A stretch of 64,000 bases of DNA, taken from an uncultured Clostridia bacterium (lineage in GTDB: Bacteria > Bacillota > Clostridia > TANB77 > CAG-508). Below, in pieces: positions 9,101 through 56,804 of this stretch; position 1 is the first letter of the stretch, and every line of letters begins with the position of its first letter. The notes below the pieces were generated by a model, which did no database searches, had not been told where the DNA came from, and saw only the letters and a list, made by a program, of their open reading frames with translations. The stretch spans positions 1,916 to 65,915 of the forward strand of contig CAKPDR010000001.1 of NCBI GenBank assembly GCA_934149075.1, in the 5' to 3' direction. The position numbers and the translations under genes were made by a program.

Positions 9101-9286
9101 TTTTTCCTTTTTTTCGTAATTATATCATATCTTGTTGACTATTTGAATACTATTCTTGTTAATATATCTATATATTTTAATTTTCAACTCTTTTTTCAAA
9201 GAAATATGATAATTACCAAAATGCTTACTTAAAATTATTCATACTAAAATTTAGAAAATACTTTATTTTTTTCTAGACTAGCTATT

Positions 9287-9311
9287 GAACTTAATGCCTT
9301 CGGGTTATGAG
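9287..9311 (-). repeat. left att-core-like repeat (attL candidate)
   Basis: gaactta-atg-ccttcgggttatgag. It matches 22 of 25 positions at 56693-56717 with the same spacing, and lies about 100 bp downstream of the integrase stop. Confidence 0.5.
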
Positions 9312-9373
9312 GGCAGAAAGTTTTTTAAAAGAAAGCCTTTATTTCCAGTCTTTTGGAGATTTATTTTTTAGAC

Positions 9374-9397
9374 TTTCCCTTTATTTTCCCTTTATGT
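9374..9397. repeat. arm-type direct repeat (2x TTCCCTTTAT), left copy
   Basis: The 24-nt ctttccctttattttccctttatg is identical to 56548-56571. Confidence 0.55.
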
Positions 9398-9413
9398 CAT
9401 TTTAAAGTTCCAT

Positions 9414-10610
9414 TTAGTTCATATTTATATCAGTTAAATAATCTTCTAATCTATTCATTTGGGATAGTTTAACTTGTCCTAAAATATGAACATATATATC
9501 TGCTGTAGTGCTATAACTAGCATGACCTAATATTTCTTGTAATACTCTTAAATCAATTCCTGCTTCAATAGATCTTGTTGCAAAAGTATGTCTTAGTTCA
9601 TGTATTCCTACTTTTCTAAAATTGTTACTTTTACATATTCCCTGACAAGTTTTTCTTAAGTATTCAGATGTTATTGGATGATTATATTTCGTTTTAAATA
9701 TAAAATCATCATCTTTAAATCCTTCTCCTAATTCAGCAAGTTCTTCTTGCTCTGCTTGTACTTTTTTCTTGTATTCTTGTAAAATTCTTACTACTTTATC
9801 TAGCATTGGTACAACTCTATAACTATTTTCTGTTTTTACATCTGTAACCTTTCTTTCTCTTTTTACTTTATTAAAATCATCATCATAAGTTGTTATTTTT
9901 TGCATACCTCTTCTTACATATAGAGCTTTGTTTTCAAAATCAACATCTTTCCATGTTAGTCCACTTAATTCTCCTGCTCTAAGTCCAGTATTAACTAATA
10001 CTATATAAGCTGTTCCCATTCTATATTTTTTCATAAATCCTTCAAATACAAGTTGTTCTTCTTTTGTCATTATATTTAATTCTTTTCTTCTCATTGATGG
10101 CAATTTTAAATTTCTTGTTGGATTTAGTGATATATGCCTACACATAATTGCATCATCAAAACACATTTTTAAAATACTATAATAATGTCTTAAAGATTTA
10201 GGTGATTTACCTTCATTTTGTAAATCACTAATAAATTTTTGTAAATGATATAATTCTATTTTTTGTAATTGCATATTTCCTAAATGTTCTAATATTGTTT
10301 TAGATTTTTCAACATACCCCTGATAAGTTCTAGGTGATATATATGGCTTTTTATAAACTTTCATCCATTCTTTTAGCCATTCTTCCAAAGTTATATTTTT
10401 ATTTTCAATATAGTAATTGTCATCTCTCTTCTTCCTAAGCTCTTGCATTTTTTCTACAACTACTCGTTGGCTTTTATCATAGACTGAAACTTGTTTTCTT
10501 ACACCATTTACCTCAACTGTAATCCTCCCTTCATATCCATTACCTTTTTTTCTTATTGTGCCTTCTCCTTTTACTCTCCTTGTATTATCATTTTTTGTTC
10601 TTCTTCCCAT
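9414..10610 (-). CDS. int: tyrosine site-specific integrase
   Basis: 398 aa. It has a SAM-like N domain and a catalytic domain with the R..HxxR..Y residues (GIHELRHTFATRSIEAGIDLRVLQEILGHASYSTTADIYVH). Confidence 0.9.
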   Translation of the reverse strand: MGRRTKNDNTRRVKGEGTIRKKGNGYEGRITVEVNGVRKQVSVYDKSQRVVVEKMQELRKKRDDNYYIENKNITLEEWLKEWMKVYKKPYISPRTYQGYVEKSKTILEHLGNMQLQKIELYHLQKFISDLQNEGKSPKSLRHYYSILKMCFDDAIMCRHISLNPTRNLKLPSMRRKELNIMTKEEQLVFEGFMKKYRMGTAYIVLVNTGLRAGELSGLTWKDVDFENKALYVRRGMQKITTYDDDFNKVKRERKVTDVKTENSYRVVPMLDKVVRILQEYKKKVQAEQEELAELGEGFKDDDFIFKTKYNHPITSEYLRKTCQGICKSNNFRKVGIHELRHTFATRSIEAGIDLRVLQEILGHASYSTTADIYVHILGQVKLSQMNRLEDYLTDINMN

Positions 10611-10700
10611 ATTATTTCCTCCATAAAAATAGGATTCATAATATTAAGAAGTAAAATATACTACCAATATTATAAATCCTTATCTTCGTAAGTCCAAACC

Positions 10701-10886
10701 CTACACAATGATTCTTCCTGAATTTTTATTAAACCATTCAACCATCTGTGGTTTGTTTATTACAATTCTTCTTTCAAATTTAATACAAGGAAAATCTTTA
10801 AGTTTTGTTAATTCGGTCATTAATTGCTTACTAATTCCCAATATTTCTGATGCTTCTTTTATATTTATACCTATTTTTTCATCCAT
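10701..10886 (-). CDS. xis: excisionase/Xis-like small HTH DNA-binding protein
   Basis: 61 aa with an HTH, IKEASEILGISKQLMTELTK. It sits immediately upstream of int. Confidence 0.55.
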   Translation of the reverse strand: MDEKIGINIKEASEILGISKQLMTELTKLKDFPCIKFERRIVINKPQMVEWFNKNSGRIIV

Positions 10887-11098
10887 TTCACTAATCCACC
10901 TTTCGTTTTAATTTTTTCTGCTTTTTCTGTAGCCTCTCGTGGACTATATAATTTCATTGCAACATCAATTTCTGAATCAAGCATTTTTACATCAATATAG
11001 TTTGGTGTGCTTCCTAATATATCTAATGCTATAACTGCATAAGCCTTAGCCTGTTTCTTAGTTACTGTTTTTACATTATTTAATTTCATTTTAATCAA
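10871..11098 (-). CDS. hypothetical protein (75 aa)
   Basis: ORF that overlaps the xis-like start. Confidence 0.35.
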   Translation of the reverse strand: MIKMKLNNVKTVTKKQAKAYAVIALDILGSTPNYIDVKMLDSEIDVAMKLYSPREATEKAEKIKTKGGLVKWMKK

Positions 11099-12557: not shown

Positions 12558-14855
12558 TTATATTTTTGGCAATACTTTATCTAATCTCTCACTGATTCTT
12601 TTTTGTTCTTCTACTGGTGGTATTGGTATAAGCAAATTATTCAAACTTTTAGAATTTAAAGTATTCCCTTTTATTGCATTTTTTGTTTTACCATATTTAG
12701 CTAAAAATGGTAACGTTTTAAAAAGATAATCCCTTATTATTTTTTCTTCATCTATAAAAGGAAAAATAGATATAATTGCTTCATTATGAAGACACGGCTT
12801 ATCTAATATAGAAACTCTACCTATCGTTAATTTAAAACTCATTAATAAAGTTCCTGCTGGAGATAATTCTCCACCAAATTTTTTTTCAAACCCTTCTTTA
12901 CTGATTCCTTCTTTTGTAGTTGTAATATGCCCATTCTCAACCATATCCGCAATAGAAACCCAAGGATATTCAACACCCCAATATTGATTTTCGGCTCTGG
13001 GAGGAGTTTTACCAATTTTTAAATAAGCAATATCGCCTAATCTGCACCATCTCCAATTTTCAGGAATATCAAATAATTCATCTTCATCCAATATTTCTTC
13101 TATTTTTTCATTCTTTATTCTTTTATTTTTTATTAGTTCTTTTCTTTTATATCTAGAATTATTGAGTAAATCATCAACAGAACTATCGGATGATAATTGC
13201 TTAGTTATTTTTCCTTGTAAAGCTGCTTGTAATATTGAACTTCTTAAAGCTTCAGGAAATTCTTTGTCTAAATTTATACTTGTTTCATTTAGTTTTTTAA
13301 TATCTATCAAATCTATATTTTCATTACCCAAAACAAATCCTTTAAGATTATTTAATGCTAAATTCAACTTAACTTCAATTTTTTCTTTAGCTTTTAAATA
13401 ATTTGTTAAAGTTTCTTCAGGTGATAGTATTATTTTTTCTTCATCTGGAAATTTACAATAGTCTAAACTATATCTATTTTCTCTAATTTCTTCAATTGAT
13501 ACTTTTCTTGATTTCCAAGTTTCAGTCATAGATTCATCTTCTTTTATATCTTTAATCTCACCTCTATTATCCCACCACTCATCAATTTCTTTAAACTTTT
13601 CTCTAGTCATAGGATTTTTAGTTAAACTAAATTTAATTCCACCAGGCAAGTCAAATCTATAGAACCACACATTTTCTGTCTTTCCTTTATTATCAAAAAA
13701 TAATAAATTTGTAGCTATCTGGGTATATGGAGCAAAACAACTTCCTGGCATTCTAATAATTGTATGTAAATTAAACTCTTCAAGTAACTTTTTCTTTATC
13801 GCTATTTGTCCATTTTCATCTCCAAATAACAAGCTATCTGGTAATACAATTCCACATCTACCATTTTTCTTTAGCCTATACATTATCTCAATCATAAATA
13901 AATCCGCTGTTTCTGAAGTGCTAAGATCTGACGGAAAGTTTTTTTGAACAATATTTAATTCTGATCCACCATATGGAGGATTCATTAGTATTACATCAAA
14001 TTTTTCCTCTTCTGTGTATCTTCTGACATCTCTTTCTAAGGAATTTCCGTGTACAATATCAGGGACTTCAATATCATTTAACAACATATTAGTTACACAT
14101 AACATATATGGTAATTTCTTTTTTTCGACACCATAAAAAGAATGTTGCATTTGTTCCATTTGCTCTACAGTAGGATTTTGCTTTTTCATAAAATTTAATG
14201 CATCTACTAAAAAACCTCCTGTCCCACAAGCAAAATCAGCTACTTTTTCGCCTATCATAGGTTTTACTTTATCAACAATTAAACTAGTTATTGCTCTTCC
14301 AGTATAAAATTCTCCATCGTCTTTCTGCAGTCCTTTTAAAAGTTGTTCATAAATATCATTAAAGGCATGTCTTTCGTTATAATCAGAAAAATCTATTTCA
14401 TCAAATTCATTTATGAGTTGTCTTAATAAAACACCATTTTGCATAAAATTACTAGATGATTTGATAAATTCTTTAACCAACATTGCTATGTCACTTTCAT
14501 TTTGAAATAGATATATATCTTTTGAATTTTCTTTTATAGGTTCTCCTGCTAAAACCTTAAATAATTTATTATTAACAAAATCTATTAATTCTTCTCCAGT
14601 TAATTGTTCTTTATATGAAGATGATGTTGCCCAATCTCTCCATCTATATCCTATTGGTAAAATAGGCTCATAATTTGGATTCGTTATTTCCCATTCTTGT
14701 TCTTTGTAATCAAATATTTTTAAAAATAAAATCCAAACTATTTGTGATAATCTCTGTTCATTTCCCCCAACACCAGCATCATCTCTCATAATATCTTTCA
14801 TTCTTTTTAGTAATGATGATATTGCCATTTTAATTTTCCTCCTTATATAGTTCAA
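12558..14855 (-). CDS. hsdM: type I restriction-modification methyltransferase fused to a single HsdS target-recognition domain (HsdM-S fusion)
   Basis: 765 aa. The N-terminal HsdM has motif I VADFACGTGGFL and motif IV NPPYG. The C-terminal roughly 190 aa is a typical HsdS target-recognition domain with the conserved C-terminal helix (PENWRWCRLGDIAYLKIGKTP...LIPIPPVEEQKRISERLDKV). Confidence 0.8.
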   Translation of the reverse strand: MNYIRRKIKMAISSLLKRMKDIMRDDAGVGGNEQRLSQIVWILFLKIFDYKEQEWEITNPNYEPILPIGYRWRDWATSSSYKEQLTGEELIDFVNNKLFKVLAGEPIKENSKDIYLFQNESDIAMLVKEFIKSSSNFMQNGVLLRQLINEFDEIDFSDYNERHAFNDIYEQLLKGLQKDDGEFYTGRAITSLIVDKVKPMIGEKVADFACGTGGFLVDALNFMKKQNPTVEQMEQMQHSFYGVEKKKLPYMLCVTNMLLNDIEVPDIVHGNSLERDVRRYTEEEKFDVILMNPPYGGSELNIVQKNFPSDLSTSETADLFMIEIMYRLKKNGRCGIVLPDSLLFGDENGQIAIKKKLLEEFNLHTIIRMPGSCFAPYTQIATNLLFFDNKGKTENVWFYRFDLPGGIKFSLTKNPMTREKFKEIDEWWDNRGEIKDIKEDESMTETWKSRKVSIEEIRENRYSLDYCKFPDEEKIILSPEETLTNYLKAKEKIEVKLNLALNNLKGFVLGNENIDLIDIKKLNETSINLDKEFPEALRSSILQAALQGKITKQLSSDSSVDDLLNNSRYKRKELIKNKRIKNEKIEEILDEDELFDIPENWRWCRLGDIAYLKIGKTPPRAENQYWGVEYPWVSIADMVENGHITTTKEGISKEGFEKKFGGELSPAGTLLMSFKLTIGRVSILDKPCLHNEAIISIFPFIDEEKIIRDYLFKTLPFLAKYGKTKNAIKGNTLNSKSLNNLLIPIPPVEEQKRISERLDKVLPKI

Positions 14856-17217
14856 TTTCTATTTGCTTCATTATCCTTATATAATTATCTAAATCATCAT
14901 CAAATATTTCTTTTTTTACTTTTAATGCTGTATAACCCATATCTTGAATTACTGGTAAATTAAATATTTGTGGTTTTAATAATTGTGAATAGTCCTGTTT
15001 TATATATTCGTTTAAAATTGCCGTAATAATTTCTTTTTTATTTTCTTCTAAATTATTATAAACTTTTGACTTATATACCTTTTCAAGTCTTTCCTCTTTT
15101 GATAACGGTGGAATCTTGTATCCTAAAAGACTAATCACATCAAATTTGTCTATATTGTATCCTAATTGCAATTTCATTTTATTTATAAATTCTGCAGATA
15201 ATAATAATGTTCTTGTGAATTCATCTTTATCCGATGCCTTCATAAAAGATAAATAAAAATCATTAAATTTAGGATATTGATCTAATATATTGTTTTTTAC
15301 ACAGTTATCAATATTCTCTCTTACTAGTTGTCCATTTTCATCTCTATATTGCACTATTTCATTTTCAATTTTAACTTCTTTTCCTTTTATATATGCTTTT
15401 TCAAAATGTCTTTTTTCTATTTTTGTTTGATTCGTTAAGTTTTGAGAAATTCCTTTTGGAAATCTATCTTTTTCATCTATATTCATAACAGCAACTGCAT
15501 CTCCATCAAATTCAGGATCTTCAAATTTAGTATAATTCTTTCTAAAATCTAAAATTGTAAAATGCAATTTGCTTTTCTTTTCATCATCTATAACAAAATT
15601 TTCATTTATTCTAGTTCCCCTACCTATTGTTTGCTTAAATTCAGTCATAGAACCTATCGTTTTATCTAATACTATTATTTCACAAGTTTCACTATCAACT
15701 CCTGTTGACATCAACTTACTTGTTACTGCAATAACTGGATATTTTGTATTTGGATCTGTAAAATTTTCTAATTCAGCTTTTCCGATTTCATCATCTCCAG
15801 TTATTTTCATAATATATTTCGGATTTTCTGCTACTAAATCTGAATTTAAATTTTTCAATTTTAAAACCATTGCATCAACATGTTCTATATTTTCGCAAAA
15901 TACAATAGTTTTCGCATATCTGCAATTATTTTCTTTCATATACTCTGTGATTCTTTTAGCAACAATTTCTCGTCTTGAATCGATTGCAATAGTTCTATCA
16001 AATTCTTTTTGTTCATAAACTCTATTTTCTAATGGCTGACCATAGATATCTTTTTCATCTATTGAAGGTTTATAACCGTTTTTATCAATATCAAGCTCAA
16101 TTGAAATTACTCTATACGGAGCCAAAAATCCATCTTCAATACCTTGTTTAAGCGAATATGTATATAGCGGTTTGCCATCAGTTTCTGCACAAAAATACCC
16201 TATATTTGAGACATCTTCAGTTTCTTTAGGTGTCGCAGTAAGTCCTAATTGAGTTGCACTGCTAAAATATTCTAATATTTCATGCCAATTCGAATCTTCA
16301 GATGCTGAGCCTCTATGACATTCATCAACAATTATCATGTCAAAAAAATCTGGTGGTAATTCTTTATAAAAATCCTTTTCACTTGATTTTAGTTGTTGAT
16401 ATAATGCTGTATAAATTTCATACGCAGTATCTTTTTTTATTCTATCACTTTTTATTTTAACCATAACTCCTGCTTCAACGAATGGTTTAAAATCTTTTTG
16501 CATAGTTTGATCTGCTAATACATTTCTATCAACTAAATATAAAATTTTCTTTTTGGTTTTTGATTTCCATAATCTCCATACAATTTGAAAAGCAGTAAAT
16601 GTTTTTCCTGTTCCAGTTGCCATTACTAGCAACAATCTATTTTTTCCTTGCGCTATTGCTTCAATCACTCTATTAATAGCAATTCTTTGATAATAACGAG
16701 GTTTTTTAGGATTATCTCTTGTAGTATTTTCATAATAAGGTTGGTTTATTATATTTATTTCTTCCTCTGTCAATTCTTTTTCTTGTATATATCTATTCCA
16801 TAATTCTTCAGCATATGGAAAATTATTAATATTCATAATTTTATTATTACCTGAAATCATATCTTGTTCAATCAAATCTTTTCCATTGGTAGCATATGCA
16901 AACGGAATATCTAGTATATTAGCATATTCAATCACTTGTTGATAACCTTCCATTGCTGAATGTTCAATTCCTTTTGCTTCAACAAGAGCCAAAGGAATAT
17001 TATTATGATAAAGTAACAAATAATCAGCTTTTTTAGGTTCTCCTCGATATACTTGTTCTCCATTTATATTAACTCTTCCCTTTGTAAAGTAATATTCCAT
17101 TATAATATTTTCTGAATTATTTTTCCATCTTTCTTCAATGATAGGTGTTATATATTTTCTTTTTGTATTTTCTTCATTTTTTAATTGTTCTTCTAAATCT
17201 TTCCCTTCAAATTCCAT
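14830..17217 (-). CDS. hsdR: type I restriction endonuclease R subunit
   Basis: 795 aa. The HsdR_N PD-(D/E)xK region is KKADYLLLYHNNIPLALVEAKG. The SF2 helicase motifs are I MATGTGKT, II VDECHRG, III GLTATP and VI QTIGRGTRI. Confidence 0.85.
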   Translation of the reverse strand: MEFEGKDLEEQLKNEENTKRKYITPIIEERWKNNSENIIMEYYFTKGRVNINGEQVYRGEPKKADYLLLYHNNIPLALVEAKGIEHSAMEGYQQVIEYANILDIPFAYATNGKDLIEQDMISGNNKIMNINNFPYAEELWNRYIQEKELTEEEINIINQPYYENTTRDNPKKPRYYQRIAINRVIEAIAQGKNRLLLVMATGTGKTFTAFQIVWRLWKSKTKKKILYLVDRNVLADQTMQKDFKPFVEAGVMVKIKSDRIKKDTAYEIYTALYQQLKSSEKDFYKELPPDFFDMIIVDECHRGSASEDSNWHEILEYFSSATQLGLTATPKETEDVSNIGYFCAETDGKPLYTYSLKQGIEDGFLAPYRVISIELDIDKNGYKPSIDEKDIYGQPLENRVYEQKEFDRTIAIDSRREIVAKRITEYMKENNCRYAKTIVFCENIEHVDAMVLKLKNLNSDLVAENPKYIMKITGDDEIGKAELENFTDPNTKYPVIAVTSKLMSTGVDSETCEIIVLDKTIGSMTEFKQTIGRGTRINENFVIDDEKKSKLHFTILDFRKNYTKFEDPEFDGDAVAVMNIDEKDRFPKGISQNLTNQTKIEKRHFEKAYIKGKEVKIENEIVQYRDENGQLVRENIDNCVKNNILDQYPKFNDFYLSFMKASDKDEFTRTLLLSAEFINKMKLQLGYNIDKFDVISLLGYKIPPLSKEERLEKVYKSKVYNNLEENKKEIITAILNEYIKQDYSQLLKPQIFNLPVIQDMGYTALKVKKEIFDDDLDNYIRIMKQIEIELYKEEN

Positions 17218-18850: not shown

Positions 18851-18858
18851 AAATTATT

Positions 18859-19343: not shown

Positions 19344-22300
19344 CTAACAACCTGTTCTAGGAAGTTTTTTCGTTGTTTCTATTTCTTTATAATAAGTAAT
19401 TGTAGTCCAATCATCTTTATCTTCAACATTAATATCTTTATAATTTCCAGATACTTTCGTGTGATTTACAAATATAAATCCATTTGGTAAATCATCCAAC
19501 ATATCACAGTATAATCTAGGTTGTTCAACTTCTCTGAAATCTGCTTTTACTGTTCCAAATCTAAATTCAAAGTCTGTTATGAATTCTCCCTCCTGTAATG
19601 TAGCATCTGTAAATTTCACTTCATTATTTACTAATGTACTTAAACCATCTTTTAACATTATATAATCATCGCTTAAATTAGTTTTATACCATACAGAATA
19701 TGTTAAATCTTCATTCCAAGTTCCTGTATAAATCTTATTTGCTCTTAGAGCATTTGTTGGTAATGAATCACTCCATGTAAAATTGTCTAATGCAATATTG
19801 GATTTATTATGAATATTTGAAAAATCATAGTATATACTATCTTTACTTTGAGTCTCTTTAAAGCCTTCTTTGTTAACTTCAATATCAATATCTACATTGT
19901 CATTTTCTACTTCTACATCAACAATTTCTTGATGTTTTACTATTTCTGCTTCAAATATTTCATCTGTAAGTATATAATAATCAGGGCTTTCAACCTCTTT
20001 TAAAGTATATTTTCCTTTTAGTAGTTCTTTTGTTGTAGCTTCGCCATTCTCATCTGTAACTAAAGTATCTACTAAATTATTGTTTTCATCATATACTTCA
20101 AATTTAGCATTTTCAAGTCTTTTACCTTTTACATCTCCATTATATTGATTATCTTCTTTACTTACTTTTGTTACTCTTATATAACCTTTTATTAGTTCAT
20201 TTTCAAAAGTCAAATCAGTAATTTGGTCTTGCGTTAATGTTATTGTTTGTGGTGTTTCATTTAATAAATAATTTTCTAATGTCTTTGATTCTTGTATTGT
20301 GTATTTTTTATCTATTCTCAATCTTTTACTTGTAGCTTCTCCATTTTCATCTGTAATTAAAGTATCTACTATGTTGTTCTCTTCATCATATATTTTAAAT
20401 TCTACACCTTGTAACTTCACTTCGTTATTGTCTTTATCAACTTTTATTACTTTTACTTGTCCTTTTTTTAGTTCATTTGTAAAAGTAATATCTGTAATTT
20501 GATCTTGTGCTAATGTCACTGTTTGTGGTGTTTCATTTAATACATAATTTTCTAATGTTTTTGATTCTTGTACTGTGTATTTTTTATCTATTCTCAATCT
20601 TTTACTTGTAGCTTCTCCGTTTTCATCTGTAATTAGAGTATCTACTAAGTTTTTATCTTCATCATATACTTTAAATTCTACACCTTTTAATTTAACTTCA
20701 TTATTATCTTGATCAACTTTTATTACTTTTATTTTACCTTTCTTTAATTCATTTGTAAAAGTAACTGTTCTTATTTGTTCTGCTTCTAATGCTACTGTTT
20801 GTGGAGTATCATTTAATACATAATTTTGTAAAGTTTCTTTTTCTCTAATTGTTAGTTTTGAATAATCTCTTATTGCATATCTTGATGTATATGCTTCTCC
20901 ATTTTCATCTGTTGTTATTGTTTCTAAAATTTTTCCGTTTTCATCTAAAACATCAAATTTTACTCCTTGCAATTTTACTTCGTTATTGTCTTTATCAACT
21001 TTTATTACTTTAACTTGACCTTTCTTTAATTCATTTTCAATAGTATTTTCTTCTGTTGTATTCCACTTAACTTCAACAGTTGTATCTTCTGCGAGATTAT
21101 ACCATTTTCCTGTATTTTTTTCGATTAGTTTATAATTTCCAGTTCTTAAATTTTCAATGCTAATTTCTCCATTTACATCTGTTGTATAAGTTCCAATTAC
21201 TTTTTGAAATTCTTCTGAATATAGATCAAATTGTACATTTCCTAGTGCAATTTTGTGATTATCTTTATCTACTTTGTATATTTTTAAATTTCCTTTTTTA
21301 TGATCATTTATTATATTTTGAGTAGTAGATTTGTTATACTCTACATTTACATCAAAAGTAGCTTTATTTATAACATAATTATCATTAGTAGAAATTTCCG
21401 TTAATTTATAATTATCTTGATATAGTCCACTAAATGTTGCTAAACCATTTGAATTTGTAGTAGCATTTGCGACTACTGTTCCATCTGTCTTTGTTAATTG
21501 AAATGTTACTCCTTGTATTGGTTTTGAAGTATCGCTATCTGTTTTATTTATTTGTATTTTTCCAGTATTAGTTTTTACATTTAATGTAGCTCTACCTACT
21601 CCATCTCCAAAAGGATCATAAGTAACTGCGTAATTTTGTGTTGCATTAATTCTTGTCTTTCCATAAAATACTGGATATGTTTTGCATTTTCCTTGAACAT
21701 TTATAATTGCATTACTTATATCTTTATTCATTGAAGATTTAGGAATTTTTAAATATACGCTTTCGCTTCCTGTAAACGAATTTGTTTGAGTTCCATTTCC
21801 GTTTGTTATTATAGATCCATTAGGTAAGTTGGCTGTTGATGTAACATTATAAGATGCCATATCAACACTACTACTAACATTAAATTTTTGTACCCAATAA
21901 TTACCTTCTTCATATATACTTCCTGAAGTTCTCATTGTAATTGTTCCATCTGAAGGTGTTTGATTTCCGTATCTTCCTATATTTACTAGATTTACTACTG
22001 CATTTGCTATTTTTGTTCCTCTTTCATCTCCCCCACGATATCTAGTAGCAGGATCATAACCATATAAAATACTATATACTGCTTGTTTAGTTGCAACAAA
22101 TGCATCATATTTGTTTTCAACTCCTAGCTCTGCTGGAGTCTTATATGGATATCCATTTATTATTGTTCTCCAAATTTGAACATTATCTAATACTGCATCT
22201 ATATCTACTGTGTAATCATCATATTCTCCCACACCTGGATATTCTTTATTCAAACAGTATGCTGGATACTCAACACCATTTTTTTGATATGTAACAAAAG

Positions 22301-22520
22301 TTGTAATTATATAATACCATCCATTTTTATCTGCATTCCAATATTGCAAGTGATATCCACAATCTCCTTTATCTTGCAAATTTGCTTCACTTATTTCTGT
22401 TGCAAATGAAAATCCACTAAATGTAGAACACAATGTTAAAATTAATAATAACATTGCTATTACTTTTTTTTCTTTTACTTTTATCATATTACCTCTTTCC
22501 TTTCCCATCAAAAAAAGCAC
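19344..22520 (-). CDS. LPXTG-type surface adhesin with tandem Cna-B/SpaA-like isopeptide domains (PrgB-like mating adhesin candidate)
   Basis: 1058 aa with a signal peptide, MIKVKEKKVIAMLLLILTLCSTFSGFSFA. It has at least 5 tandem 92-aa repeats of the form KKGxVKVIKVDKDNNEVKLQGVEFK.YDE.....TLITDENGEA. The C-terminus is ..KKLPRTGC, then stop. Confidence 0.8.
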   Translation of the reverse strand: MLFLMGKERGNMIKVKEKKVIAMLLLILTLCSTFSGFSFATEISEANLQDKGDCGYHLQYWNADKNGWYYIITTFVTYQKNGVEYPAYCLNKEYPGVGEYDDYTVDIDAVLDNVQIWRTIINGYPYKTPAELGVENKYDAFVATKQAVYSILYGYDPATRYRGGDERGTKIANAVVNLVNIGRYGNQTPSDGTITMRTSGSIYEEGNYWVQKFNVSSSVDMASYNVTSTANLPNGSIITNGNGTQTNSFTGSESVYLKIPKSSMNKDISNAIINVQGKCKTYPVFYGKTRINATQNYAVTYDPFGDGVGRATLNVKTNTGKIQINKTDSDTSKPIQGVTFQLTKTDGTVVANATTNSNGLATFSGLYQDNYKLTEISTNDNYVINKATFDVNVEYNKSTTQNIINDHKKGNLKIYKVDKDNHKIALGNVQFDLYSEEFQKVIGTYTTDVNGEISIENLRTGNYKLIEKNTGKWYNLAEDTTVEVKWNTTEENTIENELKKGQVKVIKVDKDNNEVKLQGVKFDVLDENGKILETITTDENGEAYTSRYAIRDYSKLTIREKETLQNYVLNDTPQTVALEAEQIRTVTFTNELKKGKIKVIKVDQDNNEVKLKGVEFKVYDEDKNLVDTLITDENGEATSKRLRIDKKYTVQESKTLENYVLNETPQTVTLAQDQITDITFTNELKKGQVKVIKVDKDNNEVKLQGVEFKIYDEENNIVDTLITDENGEATSKRLRIDKKYTIQESKTLENYLLNETPQTITLTQDQITDLTFENELIKGYIRVTKVSKEDNQYNGDVKGKRLENAKFEVYDENNNLVDTLVTDENGEATTKELLKGKYTLKEVESPDYYILTDEIFEAEIVKHQEIVDVEVENDNVDIDIEVNKEGFKETQSKDSIYYDFSNIHNKSNIALDNFTWSDSLPTNALRANKIYTGTWNEDLTYSVWYKTNLSDDYIMLKDGLSTLVNNEVKFTDATLQEGEFITDFEFRFGTVKADFREVEQPRLYCDMLDDLPNGFIFVNHTKVSGNYKDINVEDKDDWTTITYYKEIETTKKLPRTGC
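20013..20850. repeat. 276-bp tandem repeats inside the adhesin gene
   Basis: Near-identical DNA copies are offset by 276 bp, for example 20281 versus 20561. Diverged copies extend to about 21.1 kb. Confidence 0.8.
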
Positions 22521-23522: not shown

Positions 23523-24128
23523 TTATTGTCCATAATTCATTCCATCTATAGATTCTATAGCTTGAACACATAGTCTTTTATCTTTTTGACCTGCAACACA
23601 AGTAATCAAAGTAATTCTATTATCTTCTGTTGCTCCTAAATAACTCCAGTCCTCATCATTTATTATTTTCTTTGTTGTTACTACATATCTTTTAGTTCCA
23701 TAGTTTGTTTGATAATAAATTTCACTACCTATTTTAATATTCTTTAAATTTTTAAAGAAGTCTCCATTACTTCCTGAATTATGAGAAGCTAGACCTACAT
23801 TTCCCTCATAAATACTGGTTGATGGGAAGTGTCCTATTGTCCCAGATAAAGTAGTTAATTCTACGCTTTCTCTTATTGGTGCATTATCCAGTAAAATATC
23901 AGGAATTGTTAATGTTCCTATTTCATCATTGTAATGTATAATATCTTGTTCTATATTTTCGAGTGGTGTAGCTTCTAATTCTTCATTATCTCCAACTTCA
24001 ATACTTTCTGCATTTTTATTAGCTTTATAAATTGGATATTTATATGCAAAAAAAATAACTCCTATAAGAACTATAATTGCAACTATAACAACTGTTATTA
24101 TAAATTTATTTTCTTTTTTCATAAGCAA
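23523..24128 (-). CDS. sortase (cysteine transpeptidase)
   Basis: 201 aa with an N-terminal TM, an active-site TLITC Cys motif (RITLITCVAGQ) and a His in GLASHNSG. Confidence 0.8.
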   Translation of the reverse strand: MLMKKENKFIITVVIVAIIVLIGVIFFAYKYPIYKANKNAESIEVGDNEELEATPLENIEQDIIHYNDEIGTLTIPDILLDNAPIRESVELTTLSGTIGHFPSTSIYEGNVGLASHNSGSNGDFFKNLKNIKIGSEIYYQTNYGTKRYVVTTKKIINDEDWSYLGATEDNRITLITCVAGQKDKRLCVQAIESIDGMNYGQ

Positions 24129-38648: not shown

Positions 38649-39596
38649 CTACATTTCCATATCTTCTAATTCTTCTAAGCTATAATGCATTTCCATTGCA
38701 TATTGTTTTTTAGCACTTTCATTTAATTCATAATGATGTGTAATATCTTTTTCATGTTCTTTTCTTTGAAACTGTTTGATTAATTCAGCCAAAGATAAAG
38801 ACATACTCCTATATTGAGTATGCCTTTCGTATTTTTTTACACCTTTAATTCTTGCTTTATATTTTTTTTTAAAATATGCTTCCATATTTTCTTTTAAATA
38901 CTTTTCATTATGCAATTTTCTATCTCTGCATTTATAACCTTCTGAAGTTGTATATGTAATATTTTTTCTTTCTTTAATCCATGTAACTTTATATCCCATT
39001 TCGTTCATCACTTTAAAAAATTCAAATTTATTATTTGATTTTTCCATAGCAATATCAATACTTTTTTCTAACTTTTCTTTCCAACTAATCCCCTTTTGTT
39101 TTGCTTTATATTCATTAATTCTTATATCATCTACACTTGATTTTTCTCTTGTTATAGATAATCCTTGCTTAATGCATAATTTATTAGAATATGCTTTTAA
39201 GCTTTCTAAATCTTTATTAGAAAATTGTATCTTTTTACCTGTTTCAAAATTTACTGTATTCACAACAAAGTGTGAATGTATATGTTCCTTATCTTGATGA
39301 GTTGCTACAACAACTTGATAACCTTTAAAATATTTTTCTGCTATTTTCATTGCTATTTCGTGTGCTGTTTCATAACTCAACTCATCATTTGGACTAAATG
39401 CTTGAACAAAATGTAATTTTTCTCTACCTTTTGTTTTACCATACATATTTTTTATAGCCATCATTTCTTCATAAGCATTTTCTACCATGCAATCTTTTCC
39501 TGAAATAAACTTGTTATTAGTTTTCTCTTCTTTGCAAATATAATTTAAAGTTTTCTTTAATCCGACCTTGTTATTAATGAATTTAATGATTGCCAT
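38649..39596 (-). CDS. relaxase/mobilization nuclease (MobA/VirD2-like)
   Basis: 315 aa with the His triad HQDKEHIHSHFVVN and a relaxase-type N-terminus. Confidence 0.8.
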   Translation of the reverse strand: MAIIKFINNKVGLKKTLNYICKEEKTNNKFISGKDCMVENAYEEMMAIKNMYGKTKGREKLHFVQAFSPNDELSYETAHEIAMKIAEKYFKGYQVVVATHQDKEHIHSHFVVNTVNFETGKKIQFSNKDLESLKAYSNKLCIKQGLSITREKSSVDDIRINEYKAKQKGISWKEKLEKSIDIAMEKSNNKFEFFKVMNEMGYKVTWIKERKNITYTTSEGYKCRDRKLHNEKYLKENMEAYFKKKYKARIKGVKKYERHTQYRSMSLSLAELIKQFQRKEHEKDITHHYELNESAKKQYAMEMHYSLEELEDMEM

Positions 39597-39974: not shown

Positions 39975-40862
39975 TTAACTTATCGCTTCGCTACTAAAGT
40001 ATTCATCTAATAATTTGATTACTAAATCAGAAAATTCTTTATCGTTTTTAAATCTATCTTTGTAGATTTTCATTGCTCTTTTTTCTATTTTTCCTGTAAA
40101 CTTTTCTACTTTAATTTTTTCGTTTTTGATAATTTTAAGCATAATTTCATAACTAATATTATTTTTCTTTAATCTAATTTTCTGTGCTTGTGCAACAGTT
40201 ATTTTTATTTGTTCATCTTCAATAACTTGATTAACAATTTCCTGTTCTTCTATATTTAAGTATGATATTTCTACTCCTGCTTTTATAGGTATTTGCTCTT
40301 TATTTACTTTTTCTTGTAAAGGTTTAATTAGTTCCGTTAGTCTTATATAGTTATAAATTTGTGATTTTCCTTCTTCATTCCACTCGGTGGAATTATCGTT
40401 AAATTCGTTTATATTACTGCTTTTTTGTCTATTTTTTATAATATTATTTCTTTGCTTATAAGCATAGCCTTTTTCAACAGGTAGTATTTTTTCTCTATTG
40501 TTTAGATTTGTGTCTAACATTATTAATGTTGCTTTTTCATCATCACAATCCACAATCTGAGATGGAATTGTGGAAAATCCTAGTTCTTTTGCACATTCTG
40601 TTCTATTATGTCCTGATATAATTTCGTATTTGTCATTTTCTATTTTTCTAACTATAATAGGTACTAGAATTCCATTTTCTTTCATGCTTTCTTTCATATC
40701 TTCTTTTTTATTTTCATCATACATTGAAAAAGGTTGCCCTTTTCTAAAAGCAACCAACTTACTTATTTCTATATTAGTTATATTTTTATTTTCTTCCCTT
40801 TCATTTTTTTCAGATATTTTATCAACTACAAATTTTGATCTTATTTCATCAATACTACTCAA
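39975..40862 (-). CDS. ParB-like nuclease/partition domain protein
   Basis: 295 aa, LVPIIVRKIENDKYEIISGHNRTECAKELG. Confidence 0.7.
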   Translation of the reverse strand: MSSIDEIRSKFVVDKISEKNEREENKNITNIEISKLVAFRKGQPFSMYDENKKEDMKESMKENGILVPIIVRKIENDKYEIISGHNRTECAKELGFSTIPSQIVDCDDEKATLIMLDTNLNNREKILPVEKGYAYKQRNNIIKNRQKSSNINEFNDNSTEWNEEGKSQIYNYIRLTELIKPLQEKVNKEQIPIKAGVEISYLNIEEQEIVNQVIEDEQIKITVAQAQKIRLKKNNISYEIMLKIIKNEKIKVEKFTGKIEKRAMKIYKDRFKNDKEFSDLVIKLLDEYFSSEAIS

Positions 40863-40864
40863 AT

Positions 40865-41284
40865 TTACATCTCCATTTCTTCTTCATATTCTAATTCTTT
40901 ATTAAATTTTTCTATTTTATTTATTGATTCAAATAAATCTGTATCTCTATCTATTTCTATATATGGTATTTTATCTTTTAAATTGTTATATATAAAAAGA
41001 GAGCCATTTTTAGGATCTAGAACTACTGCATAATATGATACATTTTTATTTTTTAAATCTTGACTAGTTTCTTTCCATACAAACTCATCATCTTCAGTTA
41101 TTCCTATTTTTGAAAAATAAATCATATTGTTTATTTTCTTTAATATTGTTGGATTTCTAAATATATTATCTTCAGGTAATTCAGAATAATTATTTACAAT
41201 ATAATTATATAAATAACTATCATCTGAAAAAGCTTTTAACATATCTAGTTTATTACTCTCTATGAATAATCTTATATTTTTCAA
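40865..41284 (-). CDS. hypothetical protein (139 aa)
   Basis: ORF in the leading region. Confidence 0.4.
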   Translation of the reverse strand: MKNIRLFIESNKLDMLKAFSDDSYLYNYIVNNYSELPEDNIFRNPTILKKINNMIYFSKIGITEDDEFVWKETSQDLKNKNVSYYAVVLDPKNGSLFIYNNLKDKIPYIEIDRDTDLFESINKIEKFNKELEYEEEMEM

Positions 41285-41330
41285 TTCATCCCTCCTTTGT
41301 ATAAAAAAGAGCTAGGTTTTACTCTAACCC

Positions 41331-41624
41331 TTAGCTTACACATTCTACTATTAAATTAACTCCATCTTTAAAGCCTTGCTTGTAATATTTTTCTAAACTA
41401 GCACAATATCTTTTTGAAATATCTTCAAGTGCATAATCAAGCATCTCTTCTATTTTATTTCTTAGTCTATCTTCTTTAACTTGCTCTATTAATTTTCTTA
41501 ATTTATCTTCATTTCCATCTCGTTTAATTTCTAAAATTACATTTTTTTCTTCATCAGAAACATTCGCAAGTACTCTTTGCTCTCTGTCAAAAAAAATAGA
41601 TTCTAATATTGTTTCTTCTCCCAT
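41331..41624 (-). CDS. hypothetical protein (97 aa)
   Basis: ORF in the leading region. Confidence 0.4.
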   Translation of the reverse strand: MGEETILESIFFDREQRVLANVSDEEKNVILEIKRDGNEDKLRKLIEQVKEDRLRNKIEEMLDYALEDISKRYCASLEKYYKQGFKDGVNLIVECVS

Positions 41625-41684
41625 ATCTTATACCTCCTGTATAAGATTATACTATGGTGTTTTTATATATCCAAACCTTTTATT

Positions 41685-42260
41685 TTAAAATTCCATATCA
41701 TTTTCTTCAGCCATTTCTTTATTCTCTAATTTATAATTTAGTTCTTTTATTTCATTTTTTAATTTAGTATTTTCTTCTACTAATAATGCTTTTTCTAATA
41801 AATTTATATCTTCATTTTTGAATTCTTTATCTATATTTTTAGTTTTATTCATACTTATATAACTTGTTTCTGTAACAATAACATGATCTAATAGTTCAAT
41901 ATTAAATGTTTTCAATAATTTATTAGTAATATTAGTTATATGTATATCTTCTTTACTAGGATGTAGAGAATTTGAAGGATGATTGTGTACTAAGATAACT
42001 CTATCACTCGTGCTCATCAATGCAGTTCTTATTATATTTTTTGTATCTACTAAAATTCCACAACTTGATCCAACACCTAAAAGACTTATCTTTCTGATAT
42101 TGTTACTTTTATCTAAACCTATAAATATCAAATGCTCTTGAATTGCATCTTTTATTTCTTGAACTTCCTCTAAATCATAAATATCATTTGTATTGCTTAC
42201 TTTTATATCCTTTATAATTTCCTTTTTGGGTTTTTTATCTATTTCTAATTCTATACTCAT
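41685..42260 (-). CDS. radC: RadC-like JAB/MPN domain protein
   Basis: 191 aa, ILVHNHPSNSLHPSKEDIHITNI. Confidence 0.8.
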   Translation of the reverse strand: MSIELEIDKKPKKEIIKDIKVSNTNDIYDLEEVQEIKDAIQEHLIFIGLDKSNNIRKISLLGVGSSCGILVDTKNIIRTALMSTSDRVILVHNHPSNSLHPSKEDIHITNITNKLLKTFNIELLDHVIVTETSYISMNKTKNIDKEFKNEDINLLEKALLVEENTKLKNEIKELNYKLENKEMAEENDMEF

Positions 42261-42272
42261 TATTCCTCCAAA

Positions 42273-43235
42273 TTAAAATTCCATATCATCTTCCTCAATT
42301 TTTTCTATTTCACTAACTTCAATACTTCTATCTTTCAAATCTTGTTTTATTTCTTCTATTTGTTCTTCACTAACAGATTTAAAACCTGCATTTTCAAAGT
42401 CATCTCCTACAACAAAACAATTTCCTACAATATAATCATATCCAAAATCGAGATTAGGTTTTTGATTAAGAATCTTCCCTTCTTCATTACAAACTAATAA
42501 TAAATCTTCTTTATAAGGTACTACTTCAATTAATCCTCCAACTAACTTTTGCTTAGCTTCTAATGTGTCATCTATTTTCATTACTATTGGATCTTTTCCT
42601 ACTTGTTTGTATATAACTTTTAACTTTTTCTCTGTTTCTTCTTCCATATCATACATTTCTATTATTTCTTGTAGTGAATATTTATTTAAATCTATACTTT
42701 CACTTTTATCTATATAACCGTCATCTAATAATTCAACATATCCACTCATTTCAGCATCTCTACCATAACTTCCAAAGTCAAAATATCCTTCAATTCCATG
42801 TTGTTTTAATACATCTAATAAACCTGTATCTTCAGCAAATCTATATCCATATTTTTCTTCTGCTGACATAGTCCAACTATCTATTTGATAAGAATAATAA
42901 GGTAGCTCATCTTCTTGAATAATTATATTCATTAATTCTTCAATGCTTAAATCTCCTTCTGAATTTGCATATCCTTCTATTGCTTCCATATTATAGATAT
43001 TTTCTGATACTTTTGCTAATAAATTAAGCATCTTTATGCTTTCATATTCATTAACTTTACATGGTAAATCTGTTTCAAAATCATTTATCATATATTCTTC
43101 GTATTCATCATTAAGTCCAACTACTTCTTTTAAGAATTCATCAATTTCTTCTTTTTCTTTTGGTAATTCTAGCCATCCTCCTTTTAATTCTCCTTCATTA
43201 TATTTTTCTAAATTACCAACCCATATATTAAGCAT
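42273..43235 (-). CDS. ardA: antirestriction protein ArdA with a C-terminal extension
   Basis: 320 aa. The N-terminus, MLNIWVGNLEKYNEGELKGGWLELP, is typical of ArdA, and the protein is very acidic. Confidence 0.85.
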   Translation of the reverse strand: MLNIWVGNLEKYNEGELKGGWLELPKEKEEIDEFLKEVVGLNDEYEEYMINDFETDLPCKVNEYESIKMLNLLAKVSENIYNMEAIEGYANSEGDLSIEELMNIIIQEDELPYYSYQIDSWTMSAEEKYGYRFAEDTGLLDVLKQHGIEGYFDFGSYGRDAEMSGYVELLDDGYIDKSESIDLNKYSLQEIIEMYDMEEETEKKLKVIYKQVGKDPIVMKIDDTLEAKQKLVGGLIEVVPYKEDLLLVCNEEGKILNQKPNLDFGYDYIVGNCFVVGDDFENAGFKSVSEEQIEEIKQDLKDRSIEVSEIEKIEEDDMEF

Positions 43236-47520: not shown

Positions 47521-47538
47521 TATAATTTCTCTCCTTCT

Positions 47539-54697: not shown

Positions 54698-54740
54698 TTT
54701 GTACCTCCTAAAATAAAAAAATCACAACTCTTTAGTTGTG

Positions 54741-55520
54741 TTACATATCTAAATCCATTTCATCTTCTTCAGTATTTACTGAAGTAAAATTATTATTTTC
54801 ATATAAACTATCTAAAAATTCTTTAGGATATTCTCTTTGTTCATAATTATTAAAGCTTTTATTTTTAGTAATTTTTTTATCTTTTCTTGCTTCTAATTCT
54901 TCAACCCTTATAATTACCCATCTTTTTATTGTTGCATAATCGCTCTCATACTCTACTCCCTTTGATTTCTTATATAAAGATAATTCTTCAATACATTTTT
55001 TTGTTTTGTTTTCTCCGTATTCTTCTAGTAATTTTTTATATTCATAATCATAAAGAAATACATTTTCATTAAATTTTTCTTTGCTGACTGTGTGTGTATT
55101 TATATTATTATCTATTATATTATTATCTTTGACTTTTTCATCAATACCCTCTTGATTTTTTAGTATATAGGGGTATTGATTATTTAGTCTATAGGGTACA
55201 TCATTTGGAAATATTCTCCTACAAATTATCTCTTTTTTCTCGTTTCTCATTATATCTACAAAAACATAATTGTTCCTCCTTAAATCAGTTATCCATCTTG
55301 AAACTGTTACAGGATCTACTCCTAACTTTTCTCCTAAATATTTATTAGAAGCATAACAATAGCCTTCTTTATTTGATAAAGCTGTTATAAGAGCATAAAG
55401 CAATTTTTCATTAGGTTTTAATCGTTCATTAAATAGAACAGTAGCAGGTATTACTGCATAATATCCTATTCTTTGTATCTCTTCATCTCTCACAATGGCT
55501 ATCACTTTCCTTTCCTGCAA
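54741..55520 (-). CDS. Rep-like replication initiator with an HTH_36-type N-terminal domain
   Basis: 259 aa, LYALITALSNKEGYCYASNKYLGEKLGVDPVTVSRWITDL. Confidence 0.5.
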   Translation of the reverse strand: MQERKVIAIVRDEEIQRIGYYAVIPATVLFNERLKPNEKLLYALITALSNKEGYCYASNKYLGEKLGVDPVTVSRWITDLRRNNYVFVDIMRNEKKEIICRRIFPNDVPYRLNNQYPYILKNQEGIDEKVKDNNIIDNNINTHTVSKEKFNENVFLYDYEYKKLLEEYGENKTKKCIEELSLYKKSKGVEYESDYATIKRWVIIRVEELEARKDKKITKNKSFNNYEQREYPKEFLDSLYENNNFTSVNTEEDEMDLDM

Positions 55521-55610
55521 TTATACAAGCATATAATATCAAACTTATATTTGCTCCTACTATTAGTCCTATAATTAATCCTATCCAAAACATTTTTATT
55601 ACCTCCATAT

Positions 55611-56027
55611 TTAAACCAAATTTCTTATTTTCGCATTTTTATATACGAACTCAATTAACTTGTCCTTTATTATTTTTTGTTTCTTAAAATCGAATTTAAG
55701 AGTTCTCTCAATCTCATCTTTAGATTTCTTTTGAAAATATTTTTGAGTTATAAAATCATAATATTTCGGATATTTTTGCAACAAAAAAACAAGTACCTTT
55801 TTTATAAGTACTTGCCATCTCTTAAATTCTAGTATTTTTTTATTTTCTATTATCTTAATAACTTGATTTTCTAAAGTATTATTACATACTGTTATTCCTT
55901 TTCTCCATGCACTTCCACTTACATTAACACTATTTATCAAGCCATCTTTTATCTCATCAATTAGTTTATCTATATTACTATAGTTATATAAATAATACTC
56001 TATCTTTTTGTAATCAGTTTTATTCAT
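55611..56027 (-). CDS. ArpU-like small transcriptional regulator
   Basis: 138 aa. Its size and C-terminal HTH are similar to the protein at 54254..54697. Confidence 0.4.
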   Translation of the reverse strand: MNKTDYKKIEYYLYNYSNIDKLIDEIKDGLINSVNVSGSAWRKGITVCNNTLENQVIKIIENKKILEFKRWQVLIKKVLVFLLQKYPKYYDFITQKYFQKKSKDEIERTLKFDFKKQKIIKDKLIEFVYKNAKIRNLV

Positions 56028-56472
56028 ACTGCCCTATTCCTCCTTCTAGTAACTTTTCTAGTTCAAGAAATAGGTAATCTTCATCTATCTCATACATATT
56101 ATTTTTAATAAAATTCATTATTGTATCTTTTATATAATTGTCATTATATAGCTCAAAGTCATTTATATAGTCTCCTAATTGTTTCTTATTATATGCTAAT
56201 ATAGAATTGCATATAATATCAACTTTATCTTCAGCATTATAAATTGCAATTTCTATTTCTTCTAGTATTTGTTCAAATAACTCTAACATATTATTTAATT
56301 CTTCTATTTGTGTTATTCCATCTTGTGACATCCTAAGCCATTCCATAAAGTAATAATTCTCAATATACTCATCATATTCTTCATATATATTTTCTAATTT
56401 ATATGATATTCTTTTTAATCTTGTAATTTTGTTTATTTCATTAATTAATTTATCAATTTTCCCTTTATACAT
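56020..56472 (-). CDS. hypothetical protein (150 aa)
   Basis: Acidic ORF. Confidence 0.4.
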   Translation of the reverse strand: MYKGKIDKLINEINKITRLKRISYKLENIYEEYDEYIENYYFMEWLRMSQDGITQIEELNNMLELFEQILEEIEIAIYNAEDKVDIICNSILAYNKKQLGDYINDFELYNDNYIKDTIMNFIKNNMYEIDEDYLFLELEKLLEGGIGQYE

Positions 56473-56547
56473 ATAAAACCTCCAAAAAAAATAATCCCAA
56501 ATACCTTGAGATTACTTAGTATATTTCACTTCACTTTAATATTATTT

Positions 56548-56571
56548 CTTTCCCTTTATTTTCCCTTTATG
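56548..56571. repeat. arm-type direct repeat (2x TTCCCTTTAT), right copy
   Basis: Identical over 24 nt to 9374-9397. Confidence 0.55.
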
Positions 56572-56672
56572 AAACAAATTTTAATGATTTTTAACGGTTT
56601 TTAATGTACTTAAATGGATTACTTCAAAATTTATAAAAGTCCCTATTTTTCAACGAAAATGGGACTTTTCAA

Positions 56673-56720
56673 TGGTTGCGGGGGTAAGACTCGAACTTAC
56701 GACCTTCGGGTTATGAGCCC
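56673..56720 (-). pseudogene. 3' half of a tRNA-Met gene, from the anticodon loop through the CCA; the 5' half is missing (attR candidate)
   Basis: The reverse complement reads gggctcataacccgaaggtcgtaagttcgagtcttacccccgcaacca, with a CAT anticodon loop, an intact T-arm (gtaag-ttcgagt-cttac) and the acceptor 3' end plus CCA. Upstream at 56721-56760 there is no D-arm or 5' acceptor. Confidence 0.7.
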
Positions 56721-56804
56721 TACCAAACAACTCAATAATACTGAATATAATTAAAATAAAAAAATATTCAATTCATATTGTTATCTAACTCACATATAAA
56801 ATTA

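Follow-up and report, generated by a model that had tools for sequence, protein, structure and literature searches.

How does a large conjugative element come to lie between repeats derived from a tRNA when no intact tRNA gene stands at either of its ends? The question is raised by a 64,000-nucleotide stretch from an uncultured Clostridia bacterium (assembly GCA_934149075.1, contig CAKPDR010000001.1, positions 1,916 to 65,915 of the forward strand), hereafter called the window, in which imperfect repeats lie 47,406 bp (47.4 kb) apart. A preliminary description, made from the letters of the window, had proposed that these repeats bound an integrative and conjugative element (ICE). Gene content and the junctions in related contigs bear out both the 47.4-kb element and the ends assigned to it. 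It is very probable that positions 9312-56709, together with one copy of an 8-bp core, form a single ICE, that this ICE integrated at a tRNA-fMet anticodon loop, and that its landing pad is an orphan tRNA-fMet 3' fragment; the confidence applies to the three statements jointly. We document here the gene content, the base-exact junctions, the element and host copies of the attachment (att) site, the hot spot at which the ICE resides and the orphan fragment that serves as its target. Coordinates are collected in Table 1.

Both end repeats come from tRNA-fMet. The minus strand at 56673-56720 reads GGGCTCATAACCCGAAGGTCGTAAGTTCGAGTCTTACCCCCGCAACCA, which runs from the anticodon stem and loop through the CCA end and matches positions 28-71 of the Rfam tRNA model with 31.1 bits against a gathering score of 29; this match requires that 5' truncation be allowed and that the search be cut at the junction, and a search of the internal stretch did not report the half. 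Its T stem (GTAAG/CTTAC) differs from that of the host tRNA-fMet (GGAGG/CCTCC) by compensatory changes at two base pairs. The 25-mer GAACTTANNNCCTTCGGGTTATGAG is found at 9287-9311 and 56693-56717, the copies agreeing at 22 of 25 positions where shuffled sequences lead one to expect none, and a third match, with three mismatches, is the host tRNA-fMet, the single tRNA that ARAGORN finds in the window. The left copy gives no match to the Rfam tRNA model, and neither ARAGORN nor comparison of the flanks finds a tRNA 5' half at either junction. The preliminary description was therefore right about the tRNA origin of the repeats, the compensatory T-stem changes and the missing 5' half.

Twenty related contigs, found through the exact TehB-like protein of the left flank or the exact TehB' paralogue of the right flank, place the junctions of the ICE to the base. 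On the left side, the sequence from TehB through CTCATAACCCGAAGGCATTAAGTTC is the same in nine contigs, which are unrelated from 9311/9312 onward. On the right, eleven are identical up to ...GTTGTTTGGTAGGGCTCATAAC (...GGTAGGGCTCATAAC) and diverge immediately after. All junctions have just CTCATAAC in common, the tRNA-fMet anticodon loop with one further base, and conservation stops at it on both sides, which places the crossover at a standard sublocation of tRNA genes. Comparison with related strains had been suggested as a check in the preliminary description, and the boundaries agree.

What lies past the right core depends on the element. A full 3' half follows in this ICE (the window and L017) and also in an integrative and mobilizable (IME)-type element (L016); a different 3' half, with a different but still complementary T stem, follows in L012 and L020; and no tRNA remainder follows in L011/L019, L014/L015/L018 and L013. 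Because this sequence varies with the element, the right-end half is ICE DNA, and the left copy, invariant in all strains, is DNA of the host. The proposal that the element had imported the tRNA-like sequence is thus upheld for the right-end 3' half, and the attachment site of the element (attP) carries a tRNA fragment. Among species-representative genomes of gut Clostridia, at least 120 contain an exact copy of the 3' 32 nt of the ICE-borne half, a stretch that comprises the T arm and acceptor end. Of the matches listed, about half belong to intact tRNA-fMet genes, 34 of which have the same 5' part through CCCGAA, and the other half to 3' halves beginning at CTCATAAC, which are att sites of other elements. 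In one contig (L032), an intact tRNA-fMet is directly followed by a homologue of the right arm of the ICE; this layout is the canonical arrangement, in which integration rebuilds the tRNA gene.

These observations suggest how the ICE came to its present place. The tyrosine integrase would have recombined attP with a chromosomal site at CTCATAAC, with strand exchange probably occurring within the anticodon loop. The attP carries the full tRNA-fMet 3' half and then the hairpin; in hosts where a real tRNA-fMet gene is the target, integration would rebuild that gene. In the present species, the target is no gene and instead consists of an orphan, partly decayed tRNA-fMet 3' fragment.

The ends of the ICE are also marked by short repeats. 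TTCCCTTTAT occurs five times in the window (at 9375, 9386, 56459, 56550 and 56561), always on the + strand and within about 260 bp of the ends; the expected count is 0.61, and no shuffle reached five. An exact 24-nt repeat lies at 9373-9396 and 56548-56571; its existence and its right copy had been described correctly before, and the left copy had been placed one base off. The repeats at 9373-9396 are invariant in most related copies and the adjoining spacer varies, while a related element (L112) has TACCCTTTAT in both repeats. Every other element at the site has paired short tandem repeats of its own at both ends, either TTGGGTAAAAA or variants of TTGGGGAnAAA, and in each of two contigs (L003+L012; L010+L016) the same motif is present at both ends. 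Such paired repeats, conserved in position and specific to the element in sequence, would be the pattern expected of arm-type sites, and in attP they flank the core. The earlier idea of arm sites holds to this extent: the TTCCCTTTAT pairs are placed as arm sites would be, and unrelated elements carry equivalents.

The translated integrase contains the motifs GLRAGE, HELRHTF and LGHAS...IYVH, and it has a catalytic domain (R, H-x-x-R, H, Y) together with a SAM-like core-binding domain. These domains align with the integrases of Tn1549 and lambda, the alignment with lambda Int beginning at residue 70, and an extension of 73 aa (~70 aa) precedes the SAM-like domain. The paired TTCCCTTTAT may therefore be arm-type sites for this N-terminal extension, and the HTH_17 protein may be the excisionase (Xis). 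With the extension, the motifs repeated on both sides of the core and the adjoining small HTH protein, the system resembles those of the heterobivalent integrases of lambda and Tn916/Tn1549; unlike them, its N-terminal domain is unrecognisable by sequence, the identity is low and the arm sites are putative.

The gene set between the repeats is that of an ICE. It comprises the integrase and Xis, the latter a putative recombination directionality factor (RDF) of the HTH_17 family; a relaxase (PF03432) and a type IV coupling protein (T4SS-DNA_transf; above the cutoff of the CD1115 family); and, for mating-pair formation, a VirB4 ATPase, the channel protein TrbL_4 and the M23 peptidase as hydrolase. 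ArdA and ParB are also encoded. Nearly all genes lie on the minus strand, and GC is about 26% both within and outside the ICE. The ends are defined by att repeats, and presence varies among strains. The VirB4 protein scores 386.9 bits against the Mbov_0397 equivalog cutoff of 590, i.e. below it, and its best plasmid relatives are Bacillus thuringiensis plasmid proteins at 37% identity. A prophage was considered and rejected: conjugation genes are present, and no ICE gene has a Pfam match to a phage structural protein.

Does the ICE still move? Copies from other samples show 100% identity across stretches of 4,698 bp and 5,686 bp. One contig, k141_178733 (ERZ27287564), is 47,421 bp long, starts exactly at CTCATAAC and has 100% identity with the window across 4,698 bp. 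Counting back from the right core, its other end would fall at 56717-47421+1 = 9297, where the 15-bp repeat begins, and the contig is as long as the stretch spanned by the two 15-bp repeats. Repeats of 15 bp cannot interrupt an assembly made with k = 141; the break therefore implies that the sequence continues in more than one way at both contig ends, precisely where the two chromosomal junctions (attL/attR) would part from attP or from another host context. If that context had an intact tRNA, GGG would be shared and the contig would be 3 bp longer. The contig supports the boundaries and recent mobility, and it is not proof of a circle. On excision, the attP junction is predicted to read ...GAACTTACGACCTTCGGGTTATGAG followed by GGCAGAAAGTTTTTT, and the repaired chromosomal site (attB) ...GAACTTAATGCCTTCGGGTTATGAG followed by CCCTACCAAAC.

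Integrases 98-100% identical to that of the ICE are found on hundreds of contigs (including L170-L179 and P0063-P0181), all 120 homologues among the matches listed falling in this range. One exact variant occurs in at least three other settings, whose host flanks have a GC of 0.27, 0.31 and 0.36, and in each of them the host side past the core is a truncated tRNA-like sequence. Of 16 integrase-proximal junctions in metagenome contigs, five have a complete 3' half, the others being truncated or decayed. In gut metagenomes, the element family appears to have undergone a recent and wide spread. As separate observations, the exact TrbL_4 protein is present on 488 contigs, and a 5-kb contig of another species (L043, 1-4330) holds a degraded mini-version of about 4.2 kb, with a truncated integrase and both arms; a complete tRNA-fMet 3' half stands at one of its ends, and a divergent, tRNA-like stretch (CTCATAACCCGGGGATGGTAGG...) at the opposite one.

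The alternative that survives best is that the boundaries are right and the element is a fixed fossil, no longer excising or transferring. No circular junction was observed directly, some genes in the ICE appear to be fragments (e.g. the DnaB_C piece at 47083-47520), and ICEBs1 excises poorly from secondary sites (PMC3715440). Against this, integrase, Xis, relaxase, coupling protein and VirB4 are all full-length; several samples contain identical copies, and near-identical integrases are found in hosts with differing flank GC; and in one metagenome the ICE came out of assembly as a unit of its own, bounded at the core. Because its ends share 15 identical bp, the ICE would still be able to excise, and excision would leave no heteroduplex. 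We therefore regard a fossil as unlikely, though it deserves more weight than the remaining alternatives.

The site itself proved to be a hot spot. Among the 22+22 contigs read at the site from the left and right flanks, none is empty. Junction classes number at least seven on the right and five on the left, and at least seven different elements occupy the site. Their integrases, of about three unrelated lineages, fall into three groups with about 26% identity between them: that of the ICE, on the TehB side; a type of 391-399 aa on the opposite side, in islands of ~21-22 kb that carry DUF6076, HTH_17, Phage_rep_org_N and IstB/DnaA genes plus defence cargo; and a 422-aa type in L013. The site is a fixed landing pad, occupied in every strain examined by ICEs, smaller integrase-bearing islands or defence islands.

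These data bear on a second alternative, a single integration event at a secondary site whose resemblance to the core is accidental, as happens with ICEBs1 without its attB. ICEs are known to use secondary sites (PMC3715440), no tRNA gene is present at the site, and the two copies match at 22 of 25 positions only. However, the same base-exact site is occupied in all of the contigs read, by at least seven element types; it is conserved in sister species; and the match of 27/31 positions to tRNA-fMet described below would not be expected by chance in a genome of 26% GC. The probability of a chance site is in our view very small, and the "secondary site" of the preliminary description is better replaced by a conserved hot spot, an orphan tRNA-fMet 3' fragment used by at least seven elements.

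The nature of this fragment follows from the host flanks and from sister species. Joined at the core, the host flanks read ...TTGAGTTGTTTGGTAGGG CTCATAAC CCGAAGGCATTAAGTTCAATAGC..., and this reconstructed attB contains a tRNA-fMet-like block of 31 nt, GTAGGGCTCATAACCCGAAGGCATTAAGTTC, with 27/31 positions matching. The fragment sits between two TehB-like paralogues. A full tRNA pseudogene at attB was considered and rejected, similarity being limited to the 31 nt and ARAGORN finding nothing. Contigs of sister species were reached through TehB homologues at ~80% identity. Five of them (L160-L164) have an intact tRNA-fMet, then TehB and a methyltransferase and, about 2 kb downstream in the same orientation, ...TTGTTAATGGTAG followed by CTCATAAC and then element-borne 3' halves and island integrases. 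Another (L167, ~80% nucleotide identity) has the genes of the right flank of the window (GIY-YIG, NUDIX and a full-length TehB') about 1.4 kb from the left-flank TehB; the interval holds one core, then the complete 3' half of a tRNA-fMet and a terminator hairpin, and it lacks a 5' half. L167 is thus an unoccupied site consisting of an orphan tRNA-fMet 3' fragment. The left flank of the window can be aligned with that 3' half and terminator, from which it differs by substitutions and a deletion of 7 nt, and the left copy is their decayed orthologue. Since the empty site in L167 has no 5' half, the target lacked one before the present elements arrived, and it was never an intact tRNA when this ICE arrived. 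Most likely, the orphan is a displaced fragment of an ancient island that has since decayed.

A further observation comes from a sister species. In L165-L168 (~5237-5290), which encode an identical TehB protein, different full 3' halves stand on the host side of the core, their T stems reading GTAGG, GTAAG and GATAG. Which allele is present does not follow the element on the other side, a pattern that is not expected from simple integration and excision at the loop.

A third alternative is canonical integration into an intact tRNA-fMet whose 5' half (and displaced 3' end) was lost or decayed afterwards, and later loss of the target tRNA had been one suggestion of the preliminary description. 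The ICE does carry a complete 3' half and hairpin, as if to rebuild the gene, and a second tRNA-fMet 2.6 kb away could make the loss tolerable. This account is refuted by the flanks, which lack a 5' half and are identical in strains with unrelated elements, and by the unoccupied sister-species site, which already lacks it; moreover, the insertion is recent, because kilobases of the ICE recur with 100% identity in other samples. We consider it scarcely credible. Equally little can be said for a tandem composite of two or more elements, which would fit the frequency of tandem arrays at tRNA sites (PMC4383910), the shift in GC skew at 41-47 kb and the many defence cargo genes, since the 47 kb contain no internal core or 25-mer copy, one integrase and one set of arm repeats, and a contig equal in length to the repeat-to-repeat span fits a single unit.

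Integration of a single ICE at an orphan fragment thus remains the reading that we favour, and several observations weigh against it. Neither an excised circle nor an empty site of the same species was seen directly. Exact matches to the reconstructed empty attB numbered 0 in species-representative genomes and metagenome contigs, a search that had no positive control and is weak as a negative, the junction scan having found no metagenome contig of the host species with the ICE family; scans of viral contigs for attP also gave 0 matches. The position of the other end of k141_178733 was derived from its length, with a predicted start of CCTTCGGGTTATGAGGGCAG. Pfam recognises no arm-binding domain in the N-terminal 73 residues of the integrase. 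Beyond the 31-nt block, the reconstructed attB has no significant similarity to a tRNA, 726/2000 and 120/2000 random controls scoring at least as well as its flanks. Finally, the intact tRNA-fMet at 59343, which also has GGGCTCATAACCC, is unused by the elements in the 10 contigs examined; it reads CCCAAAGG in place of CCCGAAGG.

We class the element as a tyrosine-integrase ICE whose integration makes use of the anticodon-loop sublocation of a tRNA sequence (PMC4383910). Its kind is known, this example being well mapped, and it calls for no new mechanism. Islands and ICEs that integrate at the anticodon loop form the 'A' sublocation of Islander (Williams 2002, as cited in PMC4383910). They share with our ICE a tyrosine integrase, an attP with the 3' portion of a tRNA, crossover in the anticodon loop and direct repeats at the ends; the ICE differs from them in having no regenerated intact tRNA at either end and in targeting an orphan 3' fragment, not a gene. 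ARAGORN finds no tRNA at the ends, and only model positions 28-71 are represented there. As a displaced fragment, the left copy is correctly oriented, yet it is a decayed internal fragment without an Rfam match, and such an internal, decayed host copy would fail the filters of Islander (PMC4383910).

ICEBs1 of Bacillus subtilis has its primary attB in trnS-leu2, plus secondary sites that are sporadic and harmful to element and host (PMC3715440). Both are site-specific Gram-positive ICEs with a tyrosine integrase and Xis that target a tRNA and can occupy non-gene sites. Unlike those of ICEBs1, the non-gene site described here is conserved, is used by multiple elements and shares 15 identical bp with attP, and the conjugation genes are only distantly related to those of ICEBs1. 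The conjugation module also resembles those of Mollicutes ICEs and the type IV secretion system (T4SS) modules of the Clostridioides difficile CD1110/CD1115 type: the Mbov_0395 pilin-like and CD1115 coupling proteins pass their NCBIfam cutoffs, and the best match of VirB4 is the Mbov_0397 family of Mollicutes ICEs, below the equivalog cutoff. Mycoplasma ICEs use a DDE transposase and not a tyrosine integrase with a tRNA-type att site. The present ICE is not of that type, as it has a tyrosine integrase in place of a DDE transposase and no Mbov_0397 equivalog, and, unlike the Mollicutes and CD1115-type modules, it also encodes a sortase and an LPXTG-type adhesin.

Table 1. Features of the ICE and its attachment sites, in window coordinates.
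Feature	Position	Strand	Basis or remark
Host-side att copy, integrase-proximal junction; decayed tRNA-fMet fragment CTCATAACCCGAAGGCATTAAGTTC	9287..9311	-	repeat search; related contigs
15 bp identical to right end	9297-9311		repeat comparison
8-bp core CTCATAAC, common to all elements at the site	9304-9311		junction comparison
Integrase-proximal arm, two tandem TTCCCTTTAT; putative arm-type integrase sites	9373..9396	+	64 bp from core
Tyrosine integrase, 398 aa	9414..10610	-	Phage_integrase 1.7e-29, Phage_int_SAM_3
Putative excisionase/RDF, 61 aa, HTH_17	10701..10886	-	PF12728, 3.4e-07, 30.9 bits vs cutoff 27
Type I restriction-modification cargo: HsdR and fused HsdM-HsdS	12558..17217	-	domain matches
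Surface protein, SpaA repeats and thioester domain (cargo or mating adhesin)	19344..22520	-	Pfam
Sortase	23523..24128	-	Pfam
IetS-like subtilase and IetA-like AAA ATPase, anti-phage defence pair	26597..29855	-	family matches
M23 peptidase, candidate cell-wall hydrolase of mating apparatus	30482..31210	-	Pfam
VirB4-type conjugation ATPase	31210..33036	-	Mbov_0397 family 1.5e-115
TrsD/TraD-like protein, corresponding to VirB4 N-terminal region	34064..34720	-	NCBIfam
TrbL_4 (VirB6-like) channel protein	35248..36105	-	Pfam 1.9e-86
Pilin-like conjugal transfer protein, Mbov_0395 family	36121..36471	-	57.9 bits vs cutoff 40
VirD4-type coupling protein, CD1115 family	36484..38289	-	348.9 bits vs cutoff 250
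MobA/VirD2-type relaxase	38649..39596	-	PF03432, 3.5e-36
Establishment/maintenance genes: ParB-like, RadC, ArdA anti-restriction protein	39975..43235	-	Pfam
HTH_36 protein, conserved near right end of ICE family	54741..55520	-	Pfam; same gene order in L017, L141
Integrase-distal arm, TTCCCTTTAT at 56459, 56550, 56561	56459..56571	+	tandem pair 139 bp from core
Terminator-like hairpin directly past ICE-borne tRNA 3' end	56635..56669	-	folding: -13.5 kcal/mol, z = -2.84
tRNA-fMet 3' half	56673..56720	-	ICE-borne 56673-56709; shared core 56710-56717; host GGG 56718-56720
Intact host tRNA-fMet	59343..59418	+	ARAGORN; no element uses it in 10 contigs examined

A simple terminator scan makes no call at 56635-56669, and the hairpin there is seen only on folding the strand. 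Several other features were noted within the ICE. In the adhesin gene, tandem repeats of 276-282 bp with 79-87% identity (20028-21051) encode SpaA domains. The VirB4 gene and the separate TrsD/TraD-like open reading frame (ORF) flank a short, defence-ATPase-like ORF of 239 aa (AAA_15/AAA_21, 33280-33999). At 47083-48417, a DnaB_C-like fragment of 145 aa (47083-47520) is followed by a 292-aa ORF without a family match, and the two may represent a split or degraded helicase gene. The ICE also holds several nuclease-like or WYL proteins, and its further defence-type cargo includes a PDC-S26-like nuclease (51239-52519) and a WYL protein.

Outside the ICE, TehB-like methyltransferase paralogues with ~74% DNA identity (8278-8856 and 57662-58102) bracket the insertion site. 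The right paralogue, TehB', has 146 aa against 193 aa in the full-length sister gene, which, with the offset between the repeat pairs, indicates an internal deletion of ~140 bp. In sister species, TehB and NUDIX genes sit amid island genes, which suggests that the 'host' flanks of the insertion site are fossil island cargo. Adjoining the intact tRNA-fMet, 59564-60659 contains a GIY-YIG ORF, identified via the loci of other strains, and a truncated reverse transcriptase ORF (RVT_1, 231 aa); an adjacent GIIM domain in L013 suggests a decayed group II intron. At 61560-62913, other strains have a tRNA-Arg(ACG) (L011, 6369-6445) where ARAGORN finds none in the window, which departs from those strains just left of ...GCACCAGACAATAAAAC and has a KwaB-like ORF there (61969-62913). 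In L014, a type IV secretion element (1-6543) adjoins the 3' half of a tRNA-Arg, present from the anticodon loop onward. The tRNA-Arg locus, ~5 kb from the first site, looks like a second island hot spot.

The present work maps an ICE of an uncultured gut bacterium, together with its attachment sites, to the base, and documents a hot spot at which conjugative elements and islands of anti-phage defence take each other's place. Any island finder that relies on an intact tRNA plus a terminal fragment would overlook this ICE and the many others at the site, and the map should help in annotating metagenome-assembled genomes and in tracing gene flow among gut Bacillota. More tentatively, and with the odds against it, orphan tRNA-fMet 3' fragments could serve one clade of uncultured, low-GC Bacillota of the gut as conserved landing pads that are permanently occupied and are shared by several unrelated integrase lineages, all with crossover at one 8-bp anticodon-loop core. 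If so, the polymorphic host-side 3' halves in a sister species would record such exchange, and ICEs and defence islands would swap in and out, and between species, with the essential initiator tRNA gene left untouched.

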